A stretch of 38,876 bases of DNA, taken from positions 1 to 38,876 of IMG/VR virus record IMGVR_UViG_3300033997_000186; one strand, written 5' to 3'. Numbering within the stretch: the stretch's first letter is position 1; each line of letters starts with the position of its first letter. Positions 128 to 33,105 of the stretch are shown one piece after another. The translations under genes were made by a program, and so were the position numbers. This DNA comes from a virus. Under the pieces are notes generated by a model, which searched no databases, was not told where the DNA came from, and saw only the letters and a program-made list of their open reading frames with translations.

Positions 128-167
128 TTTTGTCCGAGGAGTGGACCAGGCGCAGCGCAGCACTCAT
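1..167 (-). CDS. 5' part of an early ORF that spans the circular junction (continues from 38749 down to 38452; about 154 aa in total)
   Basis: An in-frame ATG at 165-167 (minus strand) overlaps the TGA of the upstream gene (ATGA coupling). The frame stays open through base 1 into the 38452..38826 ORF once the overlap is collapsed. Confidence 0.6.
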   Translation of the reverse strand, partial: MSAALRLVHSSDKSDPIPKSKEALRDHFYAVPGESKEDRAKRLSAERSKRYRLNQ

Positions 168-763
168 AGGGTTTCACCGTTCAACTTGGCCAGGAGCAAC
201 AGCGGCAGCGGGCGACCGGTGCCAGTCGACAAGGCCACCAGCTCGTTGAACATCGCGGCGATAGCCTCGGCGCCCTCTGTGAGCATTTCGTCGACCTGGT
301 CCGGGTCGTCGGTGTGGTCGTACTTGCCGTCGTGCGCCGGGGCGCTGGCGGCGAGGAAGTCACCAACCGCCTGCGTGACTTCACCCAAGCGAGCACGCGC
401 GGCAGGAACACCTACCAGGCCAACGAGCTCATGGATTCGGACGTCGAAACAGCCAGCCATGGCCAACAGCTCGGAGCGGGCGGCCTTCTGGTAGTCCTCG
501 GGCAGGCAGGAGAGCCAGGCCCATTTCCATTCCAGGGGGAACGGCTGGGTTTCGTGGAAAATGCGGGATACACGCTGCGCCCACGCCTTGCGGGTGCGCT
601 GGTAGGCCTCGATATCGGCTGGCTCCTCCATGGGGTCAATCAACCCCGCGGCCGCCAGTGCTGGCGCCAAGCGCTCGCTTGCGAAGCGCTCTAGTGACCA
701 GTCCGAATGGGCAAACCATCGGCTAGTCTGATCGACAACCACGTCGCGTTCTGTCCGAGTCAT
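164..763 (-). CDS. First gene of the leftward early operon, divergent from cI. Hypothetical; possibly a CII/YdaT-like regulator.
   Basis: ORF track 164..808. I prefer the ATG at 763, which is preceded by GGAAAGG. There is a weak by-eye resemblance to the YdaT / 186 CII pattern (W..R....ET.P.P.E....L.LPED). No Cro-sized ORF is present. Confidence 0.6.
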   Translation of the reverse strand: MTRTERDVVVDQTSRWFAHSDWSLERFASERLAPALAAAGLIDPMEEPADIEAYQRTRKAWAQRVSRIFHETQPFPLEWKWAWLSCLPEDYQKAARSELLAMAGCFDVRIHELVGLVGVPAARARLGEVTQAVGDFLAASAPAHDGKYDHTDDPDQVDEMLTEGAEAIAAMFNELVALSTGTGRPLPLLLLAKLNGETL

Positions 764-811
764 ATAGCACCTTTCCCTGAAAAATGGGTCGCATGTATCC
801 CTGCCCACATT

Positions 812-911: not shown

Positions 912-1577
912 ATGCAACGCGATTTCACAATCGGCACCGCAATACGGACGCGGCGGCAAGCCCTTGGATGGTCGCTGCAGCGCCTGATCGACGCCTCGAA
1001 TTTGGAGATGTCGACCGGCCACCTAGCGACCCTAGAAACGAAGGACGTCGCCCCGAGCGTCTATGTCGCCGACGCACTGGCGAAAGGCCTGGGGACGACC
1101 GTCGACATACTGCTCAAAGAGGCGAGGAATCCGAATGGATTCACAGCGCCCAGCGAGCACGCCCAGCGCGTGCCTGTCATACCGTGGGCGCTGGCAGCCG
1201 AATGGGTGAAGAACCCCGACCCTACAAGGCTTCCAGCCGGTACAGCATGGGTGATGCCGCCCGAGTCGCCAGCGGGCCGGGTGTTCGCTATGACAGTGCG
1301 CGATGAAGGCATGCAGGCGCCGACCGGTGTCAGCTTCCCGCCTGGCTATACGATTTTCGTCGACCCTGCTCGAAAGCCGGTTGCCAATGATTTCCTGGTC
1401 GCTCACCTGAGCGACCAGGCCGCGCCCGTGTTCAAAAAACTGACACTCGACGGTTCGGCGTACTATTTGCGCGCACTAAACCCGCAGTTCCCCATGGTCC
1501 AGGTCGGTGATACATTCGAGAGCATTGGTGTCGTCGTCGGCCTGCGTGCTGGCTTCGACAAAGGGGGGATTCTATAA
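912..1577 (+). CDS. cI: Lambda-CI-type prophage repressor (XRE HTH plus S24/LexA-like C-terminal domain; nucleophile Ser replaced by Gly)
   Basis: The C-terminal half aligns by eye to lambda CI: VRDEGMQAPTG..FPPGYTIFVDP...FKKL...LNPQFPM versus VEGNSMTAPTG..FPDGMLILVDP...FKKL...LNPQYPM. There is an alternative ATG at 888. Confidence 0.9.
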   Translation: MQRDFTIGTAIRTRRQALGWSLQRLIDASNLEMSTGHLATLETKDVAPSVYVADALAKGLGTTVDILLKEARNPNGFTAPSEHAQRVPVIPWALAAEWVKNPDPTRLPAGTAWVMPPESPAGRVFAMTVRDEGMQAPTGVSFPPGYTIFVDPARKPVANDFLVAHLSDQAAPVFKKLTLDGSAYYLRALNPQFPMVQVGDTFESIGVVVGLRAGFDKGGIL

Positions 1578-1840: not shown

Positions 1841-1910
1841 TTTGTACTTTTTTACTTTTGTACTTTTGACCAAAGGGACAAAATGACAAACGTACAAAAG
1901 GACAAGGGCC
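1841..1910. repeat. Array A of 8-bp units (4 x TTTTGTAC-type then 5 x AAAAGGAC-type), overlapping the repA RBS and start codon
   Basis: tttgtac ttttttac ttttgtac ttttgacc aaagggac aaaatgac aaacgtac aaaaggac aagggcc, with a strict 8-bp register. Confidence 0.7.
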
Positions 1911-4900
1911 TGGCCGGCTTTTACGAGGAGCGGTTTAACTCCGACCCGTACAGCCTCATGGCTTACTTCGACGCTCAGATCAGCGCTGCAGCTGCTGACG
2001 TCTCTCTAAAGTGGTCTTCCGTCTCCAGCGCCGTGCGCCTCAACGGCAAGCCGCTGGCCAAGTATTCAAAAACCAAACCTGTTGCCCTCGAAACCCGTTA
2101 CCACGGGAAGGTGATGGTTTGGGGCGAGGTGAAGGAGACCGCCGCCAAGGACGACCTGGCCGAATTTGAATACCCGTTCCTCACCTTCTCGAACAACGTC
2201 ACCGGGTCGAGCACCTGGTCAGGCTTTACTGCGCTCCTCGAACTTTACAAGGATTCCCGCGGTGTCGTCTCTGACGATCGCCACCGCAAATGGCAGGCCG
2301 AGCAGGAAAAGCGGCGCGCCGAGCGTGAAGCCAAGCGCGAGGCCGAAGAAGCGGCCGAGCGCATTCGTGCCGAGCGCGTGGAAAAAGAGCTGGCGGCGTA
2401 CAAGCACGCTTGGCTGACCGGCGAGCGCGGCGAATTCGACTACGAAGGCACCAGCCGCGGCCGCGCCTACATCGGGCGCGGGTTTGTCGAGGTCCTGGGC
2501 GAGGAGGACGGCAGCTCTCCTTACTTGCAGGCGAAACAGATTTCTGACGTAGCGTCACGCTTCAAAATGTTGAAAATGCGTGACCGTCACGGTGAATTCA
2601 CCGCCGTTCCTCTCTACGATGCCTATCGAAATTTCCTCGGCCTGCAGCGCCTCTATGCTGACAAAAAGCTGCAGGGGACCGGCGTCAAGATGGCTGGCGC
2701 CCATTGCATCCTGGGCGACCTGGAAACCGCGCAGGTCCGTTTCGCGGTCGAAGGTTTCGCAACCGGCGCCAGCATCTACCTGGCAGAGCTCGAGGCCGGC
2801 CGTAACGTTGCGGTCGTCGTGACCTTCAACGTCGACAACCTGGTAAAGGTGCTGCATGTCTATGACAAGCTGTATCCGGCCTGGCGCTTCTGGAATGGCG
2901 CCGACAATGACCAGTGGAAGACCTCAGGCAATGCCGGCTTGCTGGCGGCCCTGGAAGTGCATAAAGAGCTGCAGCACCCTGGCATCGTTCCGCAGTTCAA
3001 GCTGACCGAGGAGCAGATCGCCGAGGCCAAGGCCACCGGCAAAGGTCCGACCGACTGGAACGACTTCCACGTCCTCTACGGCCTGAAAGCCACAGCCAAG
3101 GCTCTGCATGCCCGCGCCAGCGTGTTTCACGCCCAAAAAGACTGGTTCAGCTACTGCCTGCAGCGCGTCGAGCGCAGCGGGCGTTTCGCCGAGAAGGCCG
3201 CGAAAATGGCGATCAGCGGCGGCATGAACCTGGTCCCGATCAAGTACAGCACCGACGACGTCATTCGAGCGGTGCTCGAGGTGCTTCCCGCCGTGGCACC
3301 GGTCGAGCTGCGCACGAAGCTGCGTAGCCTGGCCTTGTGGATCGCCAACCAGCGCCGCAACCAGGCCCAGCAGCTGCGCAGCTTCTCGCCTGACGCCTTG
3401 AACAAGCCATATGTGCAGTACATGCCTATCGCTGCAGTGCCGCACCCGGAGCACGGCAGCCCGATGCTTCCTGGCCACCTGGCCGACCTGGTCGAGAGCC
3501 TCGAGGGGACCATCATCGTTCGCGCCCCAATGGGCAGCGGCAAAACCGAGGACCTGATCGCACCCGTACTGCAGGCGTCGACCAAAGGCGCTTATATCGC
3601 CCACCGAATTTCCCTGATGGATGATGCCACCGCCCGCTTGAACCTGGACCGCGAAGGCAACCAGGTCGACGCCAAAGTCGAGCATTACCAGCTGGTCAAC
3701 GCCTGGCAGATGCCCTACGTCTCGCACCTGACCTGCTGCGTCAACAGCCTGACCAACAAGAAATTTTACAACGCCGAGGACCGCAGCTGGTTTACCACTC
3801 TCGAAACCATCTGCATCGACGAAGCGAGCCAGGTTCTGCGCCATGTCACCTCAGGCCCGGTAGAGGGCCGCGTGCGCGTCATGGACGCACTGATCGAGGC
3901 CGTCAGCTCGGCCAAGCGCGTCGTACTGTGCGACGCCGACGCCAATGACTCGGTTATCGAGTTCTGTGCCTTGGCGCGTCCTGGTCAGATCATCACCGTT
4001 ATCGATATCCAGGGGCAGAACAAGCAAATTCGCGTCGACCACGGCGACGACGAAAGCGTCTGGCAGCTGGCGATCGACAAGATCAGCGAAGGCCGTCGGG
4101 TGATGGTTGCCAACGACTCGGCCGAGAGTGCAAAGAAAATGGCGGCCCTCATTGAGCAGATGGTCGAAGCCGGCGAAATGCCCGAGCGGCGAATGCTCCT
4201 GGTACACGCTGACAGCAAGGCCGACCCGGACGTCGAGGCGTTCCTCAGCGACCCGAAAAGCGAGGCCCTCAAGTATGACGTGCTGATCTACTCGCCCGCT
4301 ATTTCGTCGGGCGTCTCGATGAATCAGGCGCATTTCGAGTGCCATTTCGGCCTGTTCAGTGGCAACTCTGTCGGGCCATCCGACGCCCTGCAGATGCTTC
4401 GCCGCGATCGGACGGCAACCCACTACATCATCGGCATCGGCCACAGCTCGAGCCAGCGGGAAACGAACCCCGAGGTTATGTATCGGGGCATGATGGTGCT
4501 CGAGGAGCTGGCCTGCCAGATCGAGAACACCCCCGAGGAATTTCGCGTCGTGCGCAAAAAGACTGCATTCGACAAGGTCTATCTGTCGACTGTGACCTCT
4601 GAGAACCGCGCCCGCGCCAACTTTGCCAACAACCTGCTGCTGATGCTCGAGGCCGAGGGCTACCTAGTCCAGCGGCTCGACCTGCAGGGCGCCGAGGAGG
4701 AGCTCGCCGAGCTGTCCAGGATCAATCGCAAGTTCGCCGCCGAGCTGGTTTTCAGCAAGCGTATGGACTTGATCGAAAGCGTAACCACCCCCGACGAAGC
4801 CGAATTCTTGCGCCTCAACCGCCAGGAAGTGCGCAGCGAGGCCGAGAGTGCCCGCGTCGATCGCTACCACATTGAGCACCAGCTCTGCGTGGACGATATC

Positions 4901-5731
4901 AGCGCCACCGACGTCGCTTTCTACGATGATCGCGGTATCGACAAGGTGCGCGCCCTGGAGCTGCTGCAGTCCACTGCCGAGCAGGCCAAGGGTTACGACC
5001 TCGCCCAACGCAAGGCGCGGTCGGTCCTCACGCAGCATCGATTCAAGGCAGCTCCTCGCGCCATGCTCGAGGAGATTTTCGCCATCCTGACCCTGGACCG
5101 CATGACAGGCCTCGGGGAGTTCAACAGCGACCAGTGCCGCGAGGTCCGGGACCTGATCAAGTCCGACCAGGACACGCTGGATATCTACAATACCCTCAAG
5201 CTCGGCCGCTACATCCCGACGCTGGCCTCTAAGGTCTGCGCCACCACGCTTGTGAAATCGATCCTCGACCGCCTGGGCCTCACCACGAAAAAGCGTAAGA
5301 CGAACGGCCAGAACCTTTACCAGCTCAACATGGATAATTGGCACTTCGTTATGGGCTACTTACAGCGCCGCGCTGCCCGAAACGTCCACTCCCTGGCTGC
5401 CCATGAGCATGAAACCACGCACCAGCCCCTGCTGGCCCCTGAGGAGCCCGCAGATGCACCTGCGTATGTGTTCGCTGAAAGCAGGGACACTTTGCATTGT
5501 GAGGGTGTAAGCACAGATGAAAAGTATCCCTTGGAGGTAATCGAGCGGATTTGTGCTGTTGCTTCGCTTTGCGAGCTCCCCCCCGGTATCTCTGTTGCCC
5601 GCCTGGTGGGGGCGCTCAGCCCGGACCTGGTCAACCAGGTGACGGGGCCGAACGCGGACATGGCGGCCGCCAAGTGGACGTTGGATTATGCGGCGCGATT
5701 ACTTAGCCAGGAGACGCGGTATACTGTATGA
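1883..5731 (+). CDS. repA: RepA-like replication protein (Toprim primase domain plus helicase/NTPase), N15 RepA type
   Basis: 1282 aa. Toprim-like motifs EGFATGAS and ADND. Walker A (APMGSGKTE) and Walker B (ICIDEASQ). Position next to cI and telN matches other telomere phages. Confidence 0.85.
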   Translation: MTNVQKDKGLAGFYEERFNSDPYSLMAYFDAQISAAAADVSLKWSSVSSAVRLNGKPLAKYSKTKPVALETRYHGKVMVWGEVKETAAKDDLAEFEYPFLTFSNNVTGSSTWSGFTALLELYKDSRGVVSDDRHRKWQAEQEKRRAEREAKREAEEAAERIRAERVEKELAAYKHAWLTGERGEFDYEGTSRGRAYIGRGFVEVLGEEDGSSPYLQAKQISDVASRFKMLKMRDRHGEFTAVPLYDAYRNFLGLQRLYADKKLQGTGVKMAGAHCILGDLETAQVRFAVEGFATGASIYLAELEAGRNVAVVVTFNVDNLVKVLHVYDKLYPAWRFWNGADNDQWKTSGNAGLLAALEVHKELQHPGIVPQFKLTEEQIAEAKATGKGPTDWNDFHVLYGLKATAKALHARASVFHAQKDWFSYCLQRVERSGRFAEKAAKMAISGGMNLVPIKYSTDDVIRAVLEVLPAVAPVELRTKLRSLALWIANQRRNQAQQLRSFSPDALNKPYVQYMPIAAVPHPEHGSPMLPGHLADLVESLEGTIIVRAPMGSGKTEDLIAPVLQASTKGAYIAHRISLMDDATARLNLDREGNQVDAKVEHYQLVNAWQMPYVSHLTCCVNSLTNKKFYNAEDRSWFTTLETICIDEASQVLRHVTSGPVEGRVRVMDALIEAVSSAKRVVLCDADANDSVIEFCALARPGQIITVIDIQGQNKQIRVDHGDDESVWQLAIDKISEGRRVMVANDSAESAKKMAALIEQMVEAGEMPERRMLLVHADSKADPDVEAFLSDPKSEALKYDVLIYSPAISSGVSMNQAHFECHFGLFSGNSVGPSDALQMLRRDRTATHYIIGIGHSSSQRETNPEVMYRGMMVLEELACQIENTPEEFRVVRKKTAFDKVYLSTVTSENRARANFANNLLLMLEAEGYLVQRLDLQGAEEELAELSRINRKFAAELVFSKRMDLIESVTTPDEAEFLRLNRQEVRSEAESARVDRYHIEHQLCVDDISATDVAFYDDRGIDKVRALELLQSTAEQAKGYDLAQRKARSVLTQHRFKAAPRAMLEEIFAILTLDRMTGLGEFNSDQCREVRDLIKSDQDTLDIYNTLKLGRYIPTLASKVCATTLVKSILDRLGLTTKKRKTNGQNLYQLNMDNWHFVMGYLQRRAARNVHSLAAHEHETTHQPLLAPEEPADAPAYVFAESRDTLHCEGVSTDEKYPLEVIERICAVASLCELPPGISVARLVGALSPDLVNQVTGPNADMAAAKWTLDYAARLLSQETRYTV

Positions 5732-5741
5732 AAGTACAGTA
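5722..5741. promoter_or_regulatory. LexA (SOS) box TACTGTATGAAAGTACAGTA
   Basis: CTGT-N8-ACAG with flanking TA...TA. It matches 16/20 positions of the E. coli-type consensus TACTGTATATATATACAGTA. It overlaps the repA stop codon and lies 34 nt upstream of the SD of ORF 5775..6059. Confidence 0.8.
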
Positions 5742-5774
5742 GTGGCTTTTTAACACTAAGGGGAGGGATTCACC

Positions 5775-6059
5775 TTGCAGTGCCAGGAAAAAATGGACCG
5801 AGCGTCCGAGCAACTCAGTCGCGCCAAGTCGGCGCTTAGTTTGGCCATGAAGGCCGGTATGGAAGCAACACGAGGTGAACTGCTGGACGTTATCGCCGCG
5901 GTATTCGAGAGGGTGGAGGGAGCAGAGACGGCACTGCGAGCAGGAGAAAACAAGGATGCCCAGCCGGGGCAGTTGACCCCAGCTGGTTCGAGAACTGATG
6001 CGGTGCAAAATCAGTTGCGGGTTGTTCCTTTCGCCGCCAGCGCCAGCAGCGCGTCATAA
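5775..6059 (+). CDS. Small ORF between repA and telN; candidate SOS-controlled antirepressor / induction factor
   Basis: A strong SD (AAGGGGAGGG, 5759-5768) sits 6 nt before a TTG at 5775, with an in-frame ATG at 5793. Predicted to be helical and acidic. The 3' end overlaps the telN 3' end convergently. Confidence 0.5.
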   Translation: MQCQEKMDRASEQLSRAKSALSLAMKAGMEATRGELLDVIAAVFERVEGAETALRAGENKDAQPGQLTPAGSRTDAVQNQLRVVPFAASASSAS

Positions 6060-7645
6060 GCACCCGCTTTGCTGTCACCGTCCGCCCTGGCGATTTCCAC
6101 GCCATTGAGTCGGGCGACAGCGACCCAGCGGCCAGCGTCCTCTGTCACCGAGATACGCGGCTTAGCATTGACCACCTCTGCCGGAACAGCCGGCGCGACC
6201 GCTCGACTTGAGCGGTTCGGGGTCGCCAGGGCTTCACTGGCCATAGCCAGGTAGTCCTTGATCGCTTGCCGGTGGCTGCCTACGTTCACAGAGATTGCTT
6301 TCTGCGAGATAAGGACGTCAGGCGAGGCGGCCACAGCTTGTTTCACCCATGCGTGAATACGCTGCGAAGCAACACCGCCCGCGGCTTGTTCGTCGAGCGC
6401 CTCGAGCGCCTCGAGCCGGCTGCCGTACTTGCTTTCGGGCTCGGCCGGGACGTCGTTGGTGTAAGTGATCTTGAAAGCCTTGTAGCTCTCCTGGGTGTCC
6501 ATGTCTTCATGGCCCAGCATTTCCCGCCAGAACACCGTTTCGTTGACGCTTTTCCAGCGTGCATCCCGCGTGAAATGAGTCTCGAAAACGATCCTCGCCC
6601 ATATCGCCCGGCTGTCCTTGAACACGCGATCGGGGCTGCCCAGCACCCGCTTGGCCACGGTGTTTAGGGTCTTGGCCACACGCCGGTTTACCTCGATGTT
6701 GTCCAGGTGCTGCAGCTCCAGGACTTCGGGCAGCACCCGCAGGCGCTCGAGCGCCTCGAGCACCAGGTCAGCCTTGAGCAGGGTGTAGATGCGGTAGCTC
6801 GAGCCGTAATCGACCCCGTTCCGGCGCTTGGCCTGTCCGCTGAATTCGAGCTCATACTCGCCGGCCTTCTCGAAGCGGCCGAGCTTGAGCACCTCGATTT
6901 CACGGCGGCCCGTGACCATCGCCAGCCCCATCGCCAGCGACGAGAAGCGCTGCACCGGCTCGCCGTTGGCGCCGATTTCAGCGTCGGTCAGCAGGCGCTG
7001 CGCGGTGTCGACATACTGGTAATAGTTGACCTCGACAGTATTGGTCGCGCGCTCCTCAAGGGTGGCCGTGGCCATGGTGGCCAGCTCGGCCTTTGTGACC
7101 GCGGGCAGCACCAGATGCCGCATGATTTCGTGGTCCAGCTTCATCGCCTGGATAGCCTCGAAAGCGTCGTGGTCGCGGTCCTGGCGGATCTGCGCCAGCA
7201 GCTCGCGGTGCGCGAGCCGCAGCTCGGTGATGTTGTCCAGGTCGACCAGGGCGAGCAGCTGCTCGGCGTACCGCGGGTGATGCTTAGCCAGGCGCCTGGC
7301 CGACTCCTCAATGCCATGGTGGCGCCAGTTCTGCGCGGTCACGGCCTTGCGGACGAGGGTCAGGTAGCGGCGATAGCTCGACGGGCGCAGCTTGTCGTCG
7401 TCCTTGCGGCGCTTGTCCTCATACAGGCGCTTTTTCAGGCTCTCAGCGATGCGCGTGATGCGCTTCGTCTTCTCGCTGCGCGACATGTGCGGGTCGCTGT
7501 CCACCAGCCTGACGTCCTGCAGCATTTTGTCGATCATGGGCTGCAGCTCGACCTTTTGCCGAGTAGCCCCGCCGTAGTTGCCAAAGCTGGCGCGCTCCTG
7601 GTCCTGTCCCATCGCCTCATCACCCTTCGTCAGTTCGTCGCTCAT
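6011..7645 (-). CDS. telN: Protelomerase (telomere resolvase)
   Basis: Matches remembered N15 TelN blocks: TGRREIEV / SGRRMIEI, FSGQAKRR / FSGQAKKR, IYTL, VFKDSRAIWARIVFE / VYKDSRAIYARIAYE, RWK.V.E.VF..EMLGHEDMDTQESYKAFK / RWKNVDEDVFFMEILGHDDENTQLHYKQFK. I prefer the ATG at 7645 over the TTG at 7711. Confidence 0.95.
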   Translation of the reverse strand: MSDELTKGDEAMGQDQERASFGNYGGATRQKVELQPMIDKMLQDVRLVDSDPHMSRSEKTKRITRIAESLKKRLYEDKRRKDDDKLRPSSYRRYLTLVRKAVTAQNWRHHGIEESARRLAKHHPRYAEQLLALVDLDNITELRLAHRELLAQIRQDRDHDAFEAIQAMKLDHEIMRHLVLPAVTKAELATMATATLEERATNTVEVNYYQYVDTAQRLLTDAEIGANGEPVQRFSSLAMGLAMVTGRREIEVLKLGRFEKAGEYELEFSGQAKRRNGVDYGSSYRIYTLLKADLVLEALERLRVLPEVLELQHLDNIEVNRRVAKTLNTVAKRVLGSPDRVFKDSRAIWARIVFETHFTRDARWKSVNETVFWREMLGHEDMDTQESYKAFKITYTNDVPAEPESKYGSRLEALEALDEQAAGGVASQRIHAWVKQAVAASPDVLISQKAISVNVGSHRQAIKDYLAMASEALATPNRSSRAVAPAVPAEVVNAKPRISVTEDAGRWVAVARLNGVEIARADGDSKAGAYDALLALAAKGTTRN

Positions 7646-7647
7646 AC

Positions 7648-7982
7648 ATACACCCTTTGCCCTAGTGAAAGATAGCAGGCTATTGCCATACACCCATAGC
7701 CCGCGTGTCAATAAGCATCATTGTACACCCATTGCCAGTGCATGTATACACCCATTACCCAATCTCACCTAATATACACCCATAGCCCAATATACATGGC
7801 TTAGTGCGCTCTATATTGGGCAAAGGGTGTATACACCGATCCCCCATTCTATACGTATAGAATGGGGGATCGGTGTATACACCCTTTGCCCTATGACTAT
7901 TTAGGGGTATGGGTGTATACAGGTACGGGCTATGGGTGCATGGGGATAGAGGGCTATGGGTGTACATATACACCCATAGCCC
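7648..7982. repeat. Array of about 11 copies of a 16-mer family, TAYACACCC(A/T)T(A/T)GCCC, arranged symmetrically around the tel palindrome
   Basis: Forward copies start near 7648, 7687, 7722, 7744, 7772 and 7877. Inverted copies start near 7818, 7905, 7928 and 7951, with one more forward copy at 7968. A 32-bp near-palindrome lies at 7951-7982. Confidence 0.8.
7818..7891. other. Telomere resolution site (telRL-like): 74-bp perfect palindrome centred between 7854 and 7855
   Basis: GGGCAAAGGGTGTATACACCGATCCCCCATTCTATACGTATAGAATGGGGGATCGGTGTATACACCCTTTGCCC, with every pair checked by hand. The core CCATTCTATACGTATAGAATGG resembles N15 telO, CCATTATACGCGCGTATAATGG. Confidence 0.9.
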
Positions 7983-8232
7983 TATGTCATAATGCCATTT
8001 GCCAAGGGTGATAGCTTGCGGGGGACTAATAGCGGAATGAGCCTGGTTGATGGCCAACAGGCCATAAAGGAGCGTCAAGCGCCTATACACCCCAAGGACC
8101 AGGCAGGGTCCTTTCTACAGGGCTATAGCGCCTAACCCGCATGCAGCAAGGGCTGCAGCGCTAAGGGGTAAGGACAGCGCTCGGCGCGGGGGCAGAGTGA
8201 CGGATAATGTGGCGCTTCGCGCCGCTGTTTGT

Positions 8233-8278
8233 TTGTACCTTTGACCTTTAGGCCTATTGTACAAAGGTACATTTGTAC
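8233..8278. promoter_or_regulatory. Array B of 7-8-bp TTTGTACC-type units upstream of parA (candidate par operator/centromere)
   Basis: ttgtacc tttgacc tttaggcc tattgtac aaaggtac atttgtac, lying 38 bp upstream of the parA ATG. Confidence 0.65.
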
Positions 8279-8315
8279 GTATATTGAGGGCCTCACCAAC
8301 TGCGAGGCCTTCGAC

Positions 8316-8963
8316 ATGGCAGCAAGAGTCTGGACAATACAGAACCAAAAGGGCGGCACGACAAAGACCACGACCGCAACCAATATCGCGTGCTGCCTGG
8401 CTGACAAGCACGGCAAAAGCGTGCTCCTGGTCGACCTGGACGGCCGCCAAGGCTCGGCAACCGACTGGGCAACCTCCCGCGCTGACAGCGCTACGCTGAT
8501 CCCCTGCGTCATCATGCGCGAAACCCTAAAGCGCGACCTGCCGCGTATCTCGAGCGGTTACGACTACGTGATCATCGACGGGATACCGCAAATCAGCACC
8601 CTTACCTCTGACGCCGTTAAGGCCTCTGACCTGGTCGTCATCCCCGTGCAGCCAAGCCAGTACGACATATGGGCGACCGCCGACATGGTGCAGCTCGTAA
8701 AGGACCGCCAGGAGATTACCGGGGGCACGCCAAAGGCCGTGCTGATGATCGCCAGGGCCATCGCCGGCACCCTCCTCGAGCGCGACGCGCAGCAGGCGCT
8801 GCTCAACTACGAAATGCCGATCACCGCCACCCAAACGCACCAGCGCGTCGCCTACGGCAAGGGCATCGCCCAGGGCAATAGCGTTATGGACCTACCACCG
8901 TCCGACGACGCCCGCCTCGAGATTGAAGCGCTGACCGCCGAGCTGCTGGAGCTTGATAAATGA
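8316..8963 (+). CDS. parA: ParA partition ATPase (small type Ib, no N-terminal HTH)
   Basis: Deviant Walker A QNQKGGTTKTT, then VLLVDLD and YVIIDG. GAGG lies 8 nt upstream of the ATG at 8316. Confidence 0.9.
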   Translation: MAARVWTIQNQKGGTTKTTTATNIACCLADKHGKSVLLVDLDGRQGSATDWATSRADSATLIPCVIMRETLKRDLPRISSGYDYVIIDGIPQISTLTSDAVKASDLVVIPVQPSQYDIWATADMVQLVKDRQEITGGTPKAVLMIARAIAGTLLERDAQQALLNYEMPITATQTHQRVAYGKGIAQGNSVMDLPPSDDARLEIEALTAELLELDK

Positions 8964-32699: not shown

Positions 32700-33105
32700 C
32701 GATAATCGCCAAGTCGGCGGCGCAGCGGCTCGGCAGTGCGTCGAGCTGGGTCGCATAGATCGCCGCGATTGAGGTAATCAGGGCGACGAACACCTCATTC
32801 GGAATGAGGCGCCCGCGCACCTGGTCGATTTCGAGCTGCAGCTTTTCCCGCCGCGCCCGCTTGAGCAGCCGATCCTCTGCCGAGGCCGAGCTAAGGCCCT
32901 CCTCGTCGTCGCCTTCGTCGCCGATTTCTCGGCGCACTTCGCGCAGGATCAGCCACTCAATCGCCGCCTGGCTGTCGATCTGGACAGCCACACCGCGGCC
33001 ACCGCCGCCCTGCGTGGGTAGCCCCTCCTCGATCAACTTGGAAACCCAGCGCTCGGACTTGCCCAGCAAGTCGGCCAGGTCTTTTTTACTGATGGTTCTG
33101 CCCAT
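32533..33105 (-). CDS. Terminase small subunit (Nu1-like, winged-HTH N-terminus)
   Basis: MGRTISKKDLADLLGKSERWVSKLIEEGLP resembles the Nu1 N-terminus. It overlaps the 5' end of terL. Confidence 0.75.
   Translation of the reverse strand: MGRTISKKDLADLLGKSERWVSKLIEEGLPTQGGGGRGVAVQIDSQAAIEWLILREVRREIGDEGDDEEGLSSASAEDRLLKRARREKLQLEIDQVRGRLIPNEVFVALITSIAAIYATQLDALPSRCAADLAIIDDPALIRDRLFKETRTVRAATADRLERRAHELTSSLDQVDLGSGEAGQGAASEDE

Follow-up and report, generated by a model that had tools for sequence, protein, structure and literature searches.

How does a temperate phage sense DNA damage if its repressor has apparently lost the ability to cleave itself? The question is raised by the IMG/VR virus record IMGVR_UViG_3300033997_000186, whose 38,876 nt were analysed over the entire length (hereafter, the window). 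The window comprises a complete telomere (linear-plasmid) phage of Pseudomonas from the phiHAP-1-like branch of hapunaviruses, in which the replication gene repA and the protelomerase gene telN converge on a short junction. An earlier note on this DNA, made from the letters alone, pointed to a LexA box preceding a small open reading frame (ORF) at this junction, and suggested that the ORF encodes an SOS-induced antirepressor of the CI repressor. SOS control of a real small gene is highly probable in the light of the analysis presented here. As for the full model, in which this LexA-repressed gene encodes an antirepressor of CI, we lean towards it with reservations. The junction comprises the following features.

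1883..5731, plus strand: repA, replication protein of 1282 aa; syntenic with phiHAP-1 ORF36 and VP882 gp57
5720..5725, plus strand: TATACT, putative promoter element; a candidate −10 hexamer that extends into the left arm of the box
5722..5741, palindromic, no strand assigned: LexA (SOS) box TACTGTATGAAAGTACAGTA, predicted CTGT-N8-ACAG operator; includes the TGA stop codon of repA (5729–5731)
5758..5767, plus strand: Shine-Dalgarno sequence AAGGGGAGGG, 7 nt before the TTG at 5775
5775..6059, plus strand: small ORF of 94 codons; starts with TTG, and the ATG at 5793 is in the same frame; the product is predicted to form a helical hairpin followed by a disordered tail
6011..7711, minus strand: telN, protelomerase of 566 codons; Pfam ResT-TelK_cat (E 3.8e-30) and TelK stirrup domain

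The interval between the stop codons of repA and telN equals 279 nt, and the small ORF is its sole occupant. The 3' end of telN is convergent with the small ORF and shares its last 49 nt. The overlap of the box with the repA stop codon, the strong Shine-Dalgarno sequence and the position of the ORF were all described correctly in the earlier note.

The LexA box

LexA of gammaproteobacteria recognises the palindrome CTGT-N8-ACAG. The site TACTGTATGAAAGTACAGTA agrees with the consensus TACTGTATATATATACAGTA at 16 of 20 positions and all four mismatches fall into the central spacer, exactly as had been read from the window before. Its core CTGTATGAAAGTACAG (5724–5739) has A or T at six of the eight spacer positions and is flanked by TA on both sides. 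Candidate sites were scored with an approximate LexA weight matrix built from E. coli sites described in the literature; the training sites themselves score 14.9–32.7 bits. The box scores 26.9 bits and thus lies inside this range, whereas the second-best site in the window scores 9.9 bits. The best site per shuffled sequence (200 shuffles) averaged 10.2 bits and reached 17.2 bits at most. The value of a measure similar to the heterology index is 5.1 for the box and 2.1–11.8 for the training sites. When up to two mismatches are allowed, the pattern TACTGT-N8-ACAGTA occurs in the window once, as an exact match, against a shuffle mean of 0.18. The sole other CTGT-N8-ACAG, at 32972, has a GC-rich spacer and is outside the top ten of the matrix. 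The site at 5722–5741 is the only LexA-like site in the phage genome, and the claim that such a box is very unlikely to arise by chance withstood the scoring.

Conservation of the box and the junction

Using a TelN profile, 51 loci (44–81% identity) were retrieved from IMG/VR, of which 47 were usable and were analysed, with the total length of 371 kb. In this material, 41 sites score at least 15 bits, and each is located between −30 and +60 nt relative to the repA stop codon; no site of this strength was found away from it. The relatives with a short junction (about 260–330 nt, 42 loci) contain only a small ORF, without a transcription factor, between repA and telN. The box scores at least 15 bits in 41 of these loci and 14.9 bits in the remaining one. 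In contrast, none of the five VP882-like loci, where the junction is 1.06–1.18 kb long and carries a transcription factor together with a small ORF, has a LexA box. Homologues occupy the same junction in related phages, and the box with the small ORF is the default state of this whole telomere-phage branch.

In an alignment of nine junction sequences, the arms of the box, the hexamer TATACT, the ribosome-binding site and the TTG start are invariant or nearly so, and the flanks are divergent. TATACT itself is invariant in this alignment; across the clade the same register reads nATACT. The sequence GGGGAGGGA is invariant across the Pseudomonas family, 7 nt upstream of the conserved TTG. In the Halomonas group, a TTGACC box, a 16-nt spacer and an AATACT box form a putative promoter overlapping the LexA box. 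All located homologues of the small ORF share synteny, with Q and a cII-like gene pointing leftward, and cI, repA and the small ORF pointing rightward and converging on telN.

Named genomes contain the same arrangement. In phiHAP-1, TACTGTATACTTGAACAGTA directly follows the repA stop codon and precedes ORF35. Box and small ORF were likewise found in Pseudomonas frederiksbergensis, P. entomophila, P. cuatrocienegasensis, Pseudomonas sp. HS-2, Stutzerimonas kunmingensis and two Halomonas genomes. These hosts are all gammaproteobacteria, and the box is kept across phages with TelN identity of only 53–81%. A cyanobacterial assembly (L068, NZ_JAIHOM010000047, ‘Spirulina subsalsa FACHB-351’) contains a HAP-1-like telomere phage, complete and carrying a box and small ORF of the Halomonas type; this phage most likely derives from a co-cultured gammaproteobacterium. 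At three junctions (L004, L008 and L017; equivalent of about 5720 in the window) an 11-bp insertion doubles the TACTGTA half-site just upstream of the box, yielding TACTGTACAAnnGCTGTAnAGATAAACAG, and the downstream CTGT-N8-ACAG is intact despite the insertion.

The position of the box admits another reading, namely, that it mainly governs the convergence of repA and telN, either as a LexA roadblock to repA read-through or as a gate on SOS-induced antisense transcription into telN, with the small protein being secondary. Indeed, the box overlaps or abuts the repA stop codon in all loci, terminator-like sites were found neither in the interval from repA to the small ORF nor past the small ORF before the antisense run into telN, and no clear −35 box is seen in the window. 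However, the distance from the box to the start of the small ORF is held at 24–46 nt, whereas its offset to the repA stop codon is less steady, from −9 to +38. The VP882-like phages have the same convergence of repA and telN and no box, a recognisable promoter (TTGACC-16-AATACT) lies over the box in the Halomonas group, the strong ribosome-binding site and the start codon are conserved, and the protein is under purifying selection (see below). We consider control of convergence as the main role of the box to be improbable.

The small ORF as a gene

The ratio of nonsynonymous to synonymous polymorphism (pN/pS), computed over the first 58 codons in eight relatives, is 0.28 in the frame of the small ORF. 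In other frames it exceeds 1.1, except for the antisense frame with common wobble positions, whose value of 0.36 was dismissed as the usual shared-wobble artefact. The numbers of variable columns at codon positions 1, 2 and 3 are 17, 17 and 42, respectively, and this frame is the only one open in all eight relatives. Judged by these substitution patterns, the small ORF is a real gene under purifying selection. Two antisense ORFs on the minus strand, 5703..6008 and 5756..5953, were rejected, as no minus-strand frame is consistently open in the relatives.

These data bear on the simplest alternative, a chance palindrome beside a spurious ORF. Long spurious ORFs are common at 63% GC and the small ORF belongs to no database family, but the box is unique, strong and conserved over phages whose TelN proteins are 53–81% identical, and the frame has the above pN/pS and stays open in all relatives. 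The comparative data effectively refute this explanation.

No match to the small ORF product was found in Pfam, PHROGs or NCBIfam, in agreement with the absence of a recognisable domain stated before, and tblastn against deposited phages yielded nothing. In public data 30 homologues were found, at 51–98% identity. A profile search of 1.84 billion representative proteins recovered only four clusters (at 50% identity); the family is therefore narrow and fast-evolving. Among the 46 unique small ORFs of the survey, 38 form one family linked by BLAST, whose subgroup profiles match each other by hhalign (97% probability, E 3e-10). Seven phiHAP-1-type small proteins align collinearly with this 38-member family, although the match is suggestive only (hhalign E 6.6e-4, 27%).

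The AlphaFold2 model built with the family alignment has helices at residues 2–27 and 33–55 (predicted local distance difference test score of the block, 70–88), and a disordered tail from residue 62. A Foldseek search of the BFVD database with this model returned generic helical matches only (E at least 0.4), the two-helix hairpin being a generic fold. Helix identity between subgroups is only about 25%. Just after helix 2, in the predicted disordered tail, a P-G-x(1-3)-P-A motif is kept in 31 of the 38 unique family members. In the window it is found at 5964–5990 (residues about 64–72), and it often reads ...APAG. It is possibly a docking motif. The Halomonas group has K-G-P-A at this position. 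Three small proteins (P0005, P0021 and P0022; the locus L010, 4724–5065) are 113–123 aa long and end with a hydrophobic C-terminal extension (...GLANCQKIVVGLLLAASFTPSNLYSV) that replaces the usual short Ala/Ser-rich end.

The CI repressor and the probable loss of self-cleavage

The repressor is encoded upstream of repA, beside a divergent gene.

912..1577, plus strand: CI-type prophage repressor with helix-turn-helix and degenerate Peptidase_S24 domains (Pfam E 6.5e-12; PHROG match)
164..808, divergent, beside the CI gene: cII-like gene (PHROG 4834, E 8.5e-54)

The claim that this CI lacks the catalytic serine proved right: Gly is aligned with Ser149 of lambda CI and Ser119 of LexA (DEGMQ vs GNSMT and GMSMK, respectively). 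The position of the cleavage site reads LAAEW instead of QAG or AAG, so that an Ala-Gly site is missing, and the catalytic Lys has been kept (FKKL). Thus, the combination characteristic of autoproteolytic S24 proteins, that is, the Ser-Lys dyad and an Ala-Gly or Cys-Gly site, is absent from the window CI.

In the box-bearing loci, the Ser column of CI contains G, L, S, T or A, the pattern that would be expected if catalysis were no longer selected. The Halomonas group has kept Ser, its catalytic Lys being replaced by Arg. An Ala-Gly site was found in only one CI from a box-bearing locus (L037). All box-bearing phages carry a CI whose catalytic set looks degenerate, and have probably lost CI cleavage. 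On the other hand, Ala-Gly, Ser and Lys are all kept in CI of the VP882 type. The small ORF with a LexA box thus appears to go with a dead-peptidase CI, and the module of a transcription factor and a small ORF, with a live one. Mitomycin C induces the HAP-1-like phage HMP1 (PMC9170930); therefore an SOS input must exist in the HAP-1-like group, and the box is the only LexA site present.

The proposed mechanism and the possible target of the small protein

According to the model, CI keeps the fold of LexA and lambda CI and has lost the chemistry of self-cleavage, so that RecA* would be unable to inactivate it directly and DNA damage would be sensed via the host rather than via CI. In the lysogen, LexA would bind to the sole SOS box, located where repA ends, and cover both TATACT, the hexamer similar to a −10 box, and the probable start of transcription of the small gene. 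Following DNA damage, LexA would cleave itself, and the 94-aa helical-hairpin protein would be made from the strong ribosome-binding site. This protein would then inactivate CI without cutting it (antirepression), and the lytic programme would start.

The most conditional step is the action on CI. CI is proposed as the target because the gene occupies a slot equivalent to that of Qtip and smORF72 of other linear plasmid phages, because AntC, Tum and the Gifsy antirepressors provide a precedent, because an SOS route to a non-cleavable CI is needed, and because the small ORF and CI co-diverge. The divergence of the small ORF correlates with that of the CI N-domain (r 0.89; partial r 0.61 when controlling for RepA and TelN), as tightly as with the divergence of its immediate neighbours. 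We regard this signal as weak evidence for a CI target, since shared ancestry confounds it.

Several observations weigh against the model. In two natural immunity swaps the small ORF stayed the same. Between the locus L044 and phiHAP-1 (L001), CI differs by 47–63%, while RepA and TelN are nearly identical and the small ORF differs by 2%. Between L028 and the L030 group (L030–L038), only the N-terminal DNA-binding domain of CI has been swapped (the C-domains are 92–95% identical) and the small ORF is unchanged. Were the antirepressor strictly cognate, it should vary together with its repressor, and these cases therefore argue against strict pairing with CI. Either the small protein tolerates diverse repressors in the manner of the Gifsy antirepressors, perhaps via the C-terminal domain of CI, or it has another target. 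Further, neither BLASTP nor hhalign detected sequence similarity of the small ORF to Qtip or to the N15 ORF preceded by a LexA box. The CI proteins of L003 and L007 retain Ser, and because of these two the loss of cleavage is deduced from the missing Ala-Gly site and not from Ser alone. A strict scan for σ70 promoters in the region 5500–6200 yielded none. The window has no recognisable −35 box, and read-through from repA into the small ORF could occur in the lysogen.

The swaps are accommodated if the gene is SOS-controlled and its product acts elsewhere, on RepA, TelN or partition as a switch to lytic or runaway replication, or on a host target (a defence system, cell division, or modulation of RecA or LexA as by DinI or GIL01 gp7). 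The gene is squeezed in between repA and telN, with an overlap with the latter, the divergence of the small ORF still correlates with that of RepA and TelN when CI is controlled for (partial r 0.56 and 0.61, respectively), and a helical hairpin is a generic fold. However, the correlations with RepA and TelN are expected from physical linkage alone, and the same slot between repA and telN holds proven antirepressors in VP882 and phage 72. Moreover, a target other than CI would leave a mitomycin-inducible group having a non-cleavable CI with no visible SOS input to the lysis switch. We consider such a target possible but rather unlikely, and retain antirepression of CI as the preferred reading.

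How the small protein might act on diverse CI proteins can be conjectured. In one version, which we regard as a long shot, CI of this clade is a pseudo-peptidase in which ligand sensing has taken the place of self-cleavage, and the P-G-x(1-3)-P-A tail docks as a pseudo-substrate in the degenerate S24 cleft, where it would mimic the lost Ala-Gly loop and lock CI in a state unable to bind DNA or to dimerise. The LexA-driven small ORF would then be ancestral in the repA–telN slot, and Qtip-type modules would have replaced it. If true, such docking would account for the tolerance of the small ORF to exchanges of the DNA-binding domain in CI (L028 vs the L030 group).

The phage and its neighbouring features

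Among deposited phages, the window is closest to phiHAP-1 of Halomonas, with nucleotide identity of about 69% over parts, and to VP882 of Vibrio; TelN of the window and that of phiHAP-1 are 55% identical. The window has the features typical of HAP-1-like hapunaviruses, namely, a protelomerase, a large RepA, the cI-repA operon, a telomere palindrome beside telN, and myovirus tail genes. It is about 95% identical to a 38.4-kb P. aeruginosa PaLo418 ‘plasmid’, pPHPALO418 (CP075795, 38,390 bp, recorded as circular), and a P. monteilii plasmid shows about the same level of identity. The small ORF is absent from the PLSDB gene table of pPHPALO418. Three of the four Pseudomonas ‘plasmid’ records of 75–79 kb (NZ_AP022474, NZ_CP102178 and NZ_CP096940) contain two matches to the small ORF each. 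With a length about double that of the phage, these records probably represent a 38-kb linear element with hairpin ends, assembled as head-to-head dimers.

A perfect palindrome with arms of 40+40 nt (98% complementary, no spacer) is located at 7815–7894, just upstream of the telN start, and is the likely telomere-resolution site, a candidate telRL. On its flanks, a repeat similar to TATACACCCATAGCCC occurs in more than ten copies and in both orientations (repeats at 7672–7995). Contigs of the relatives stop about 200 bp beyond telN, and the plasmid records break at about 7854–7895; given these ends near the palindrome, the window holds an unresolved telomere junction. Another palindrome, imperfect, of 19+19 nt (TGTACCTTTGACCTTTAGG / CCTATTGTACAAAGGTACA), is found at 8234–8271, at the start of the ORF 8229..8963, which occupies the position of parA in the relatives. 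This palindrome may be a partition or operator site; it also gave the second- and third-tier matches of the LexA matrix.

Implications

No account of the module turned up in a literature search combining LexA with phiHAP-1, protelomerase, antirepressor or smORF (small ORF), which did not extend to the original papers on phiHAP-1 and AntC, and a 2025 paper on Pseudomonas and Stutzerimonas telomere phages does not mention LexA. Hence, the LexA-gated small-ORF module is apparently undescribed so far. It offers a concrete answer to how phiHAP-1-like phages of Pseudomonas (including P. aeruginosa), Stutzerimonas and Halomonas, whose repressors seem not to cleave, could sense DNA damage. It also defines a new small-protein family, which is likely to provide a handle to induce or cure these elements in clinical and environmental Pseudomonas.

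Comparison with known systems

LexA-controlled antirepression of non-cleavable repressors is established for AntC of N15, Tum of 186 and GfoA/GftA of Gifsy phages (PMC3121763), and the earlier note was right to cite AntC as a precedent. The predicted logic is the same, one host LexA box in front of a small protein gene combined with a non-self-cleaving repressor, in a phage group that responds to DNA damage by induction. N15 is a telomere phage too, and its LexA box is likewise followed by a small unannotated ORF, of 75 aa. At about 39563–39831 of NC_001901 (L072, 6563–6832), the LexA box CCCTGTGTTTATATACAGTA precedes an unannotated ORF of 75–79 aa located between genes 47 and 48. This ORF is presumably antC, for which the RefSeq feature table has no entry. 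The box of N15 thus lies in the right arm, whereas that of the window lies at the repA–telN junction; the repA–telN junction of N15 was checked as well and has no LexA box. The N15 locus being located elsewhere, AntC is an analogue in logic only, and hhalign detects no relationship between the small ORF and the N15 ORF (E 0.1). The repressors differ as well. In the N15 repressor, serine, lysine and a RecA cleavage site are all missing (PMC4997575), while CI of the window retains a degenerate S24 domain and the Lys.

Within the same branch, the closest counterpart is ORF35 of phiHAP-1 (YP_001686771, hypothetical protein, 95 aa), which agrees with the small ORF of the window in position, orientation, size and overlap with telN, and has a collinear helix-hairpin-like sequence pattern. 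BLASTP found no similarity between the two, and the hhalign match of ORF35 to the nearest subgroup is only suggestive (E and probability as given above for the phiHAP-1-type proteins). The CI proteins of the two phages differ, with Ser kept and Arg at the catalytic Lys in phiHAP-1, and Gly at Ser and Lys kept in the window.

Other occupants of this slot are the modules of linear plasmid phages that consist of a transcription factor and a smORF (TF-smORF), such as VqmA_Phi-Qtip of VP882; Qtip and smORF72 are proven antirepressors (PMC10432266). The placement of the VP882 module at the repA–telN slot, mentioned in the earlier note, is correct: qtip follows repA on the same strand, and its 3' end abuts the convergent telN. 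The small ORF of the window shares this slot, following repA on its strand and overlapping telN, as well as the size range (79–98 aa) and the lineage (hapunaviruses). The suggestion that it is a new member of this class wired directly to SOS can be accepted in part. The box, the slot, the gene and the degenerate CI fit, whereas the window junction lacks the adjacent divergent phage transcription factor that activates the smORF in the TF-smORF class, the small protein has no similarity to Qtip, and the swaps argue against tight pairing with CI. The junction is about 300 nt long in the window type and about 1.1 kb in the VP882 type.

Phages whose repressors are non-proteolytic were expressly left out by Silpe et al. 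2023 (PMC10432266), and according to a 2025 survey no TF-smORF module is encoded by HAP-1-like phages (PMC12802170). The LexA-box small ORF fills the gap on the map of repA–telN small proteins that was set aside by the design of the former study and called module-free in the latter. The two types differ in the input, predicted to be the host LexA repressor (SOS-dependent) in the window and being a phage activator (SOS-independent) in TF-smORF phages, and in the partner CI, apparently non-proteolytic in the former and autoproteolytic in the latter. One slot would thus have two wirings, host LexA with a dead-peptidase CI and a phage transcription factor with an active-peptidase CI, which makes it a clean natural system for studying the exchange of induction inputs.

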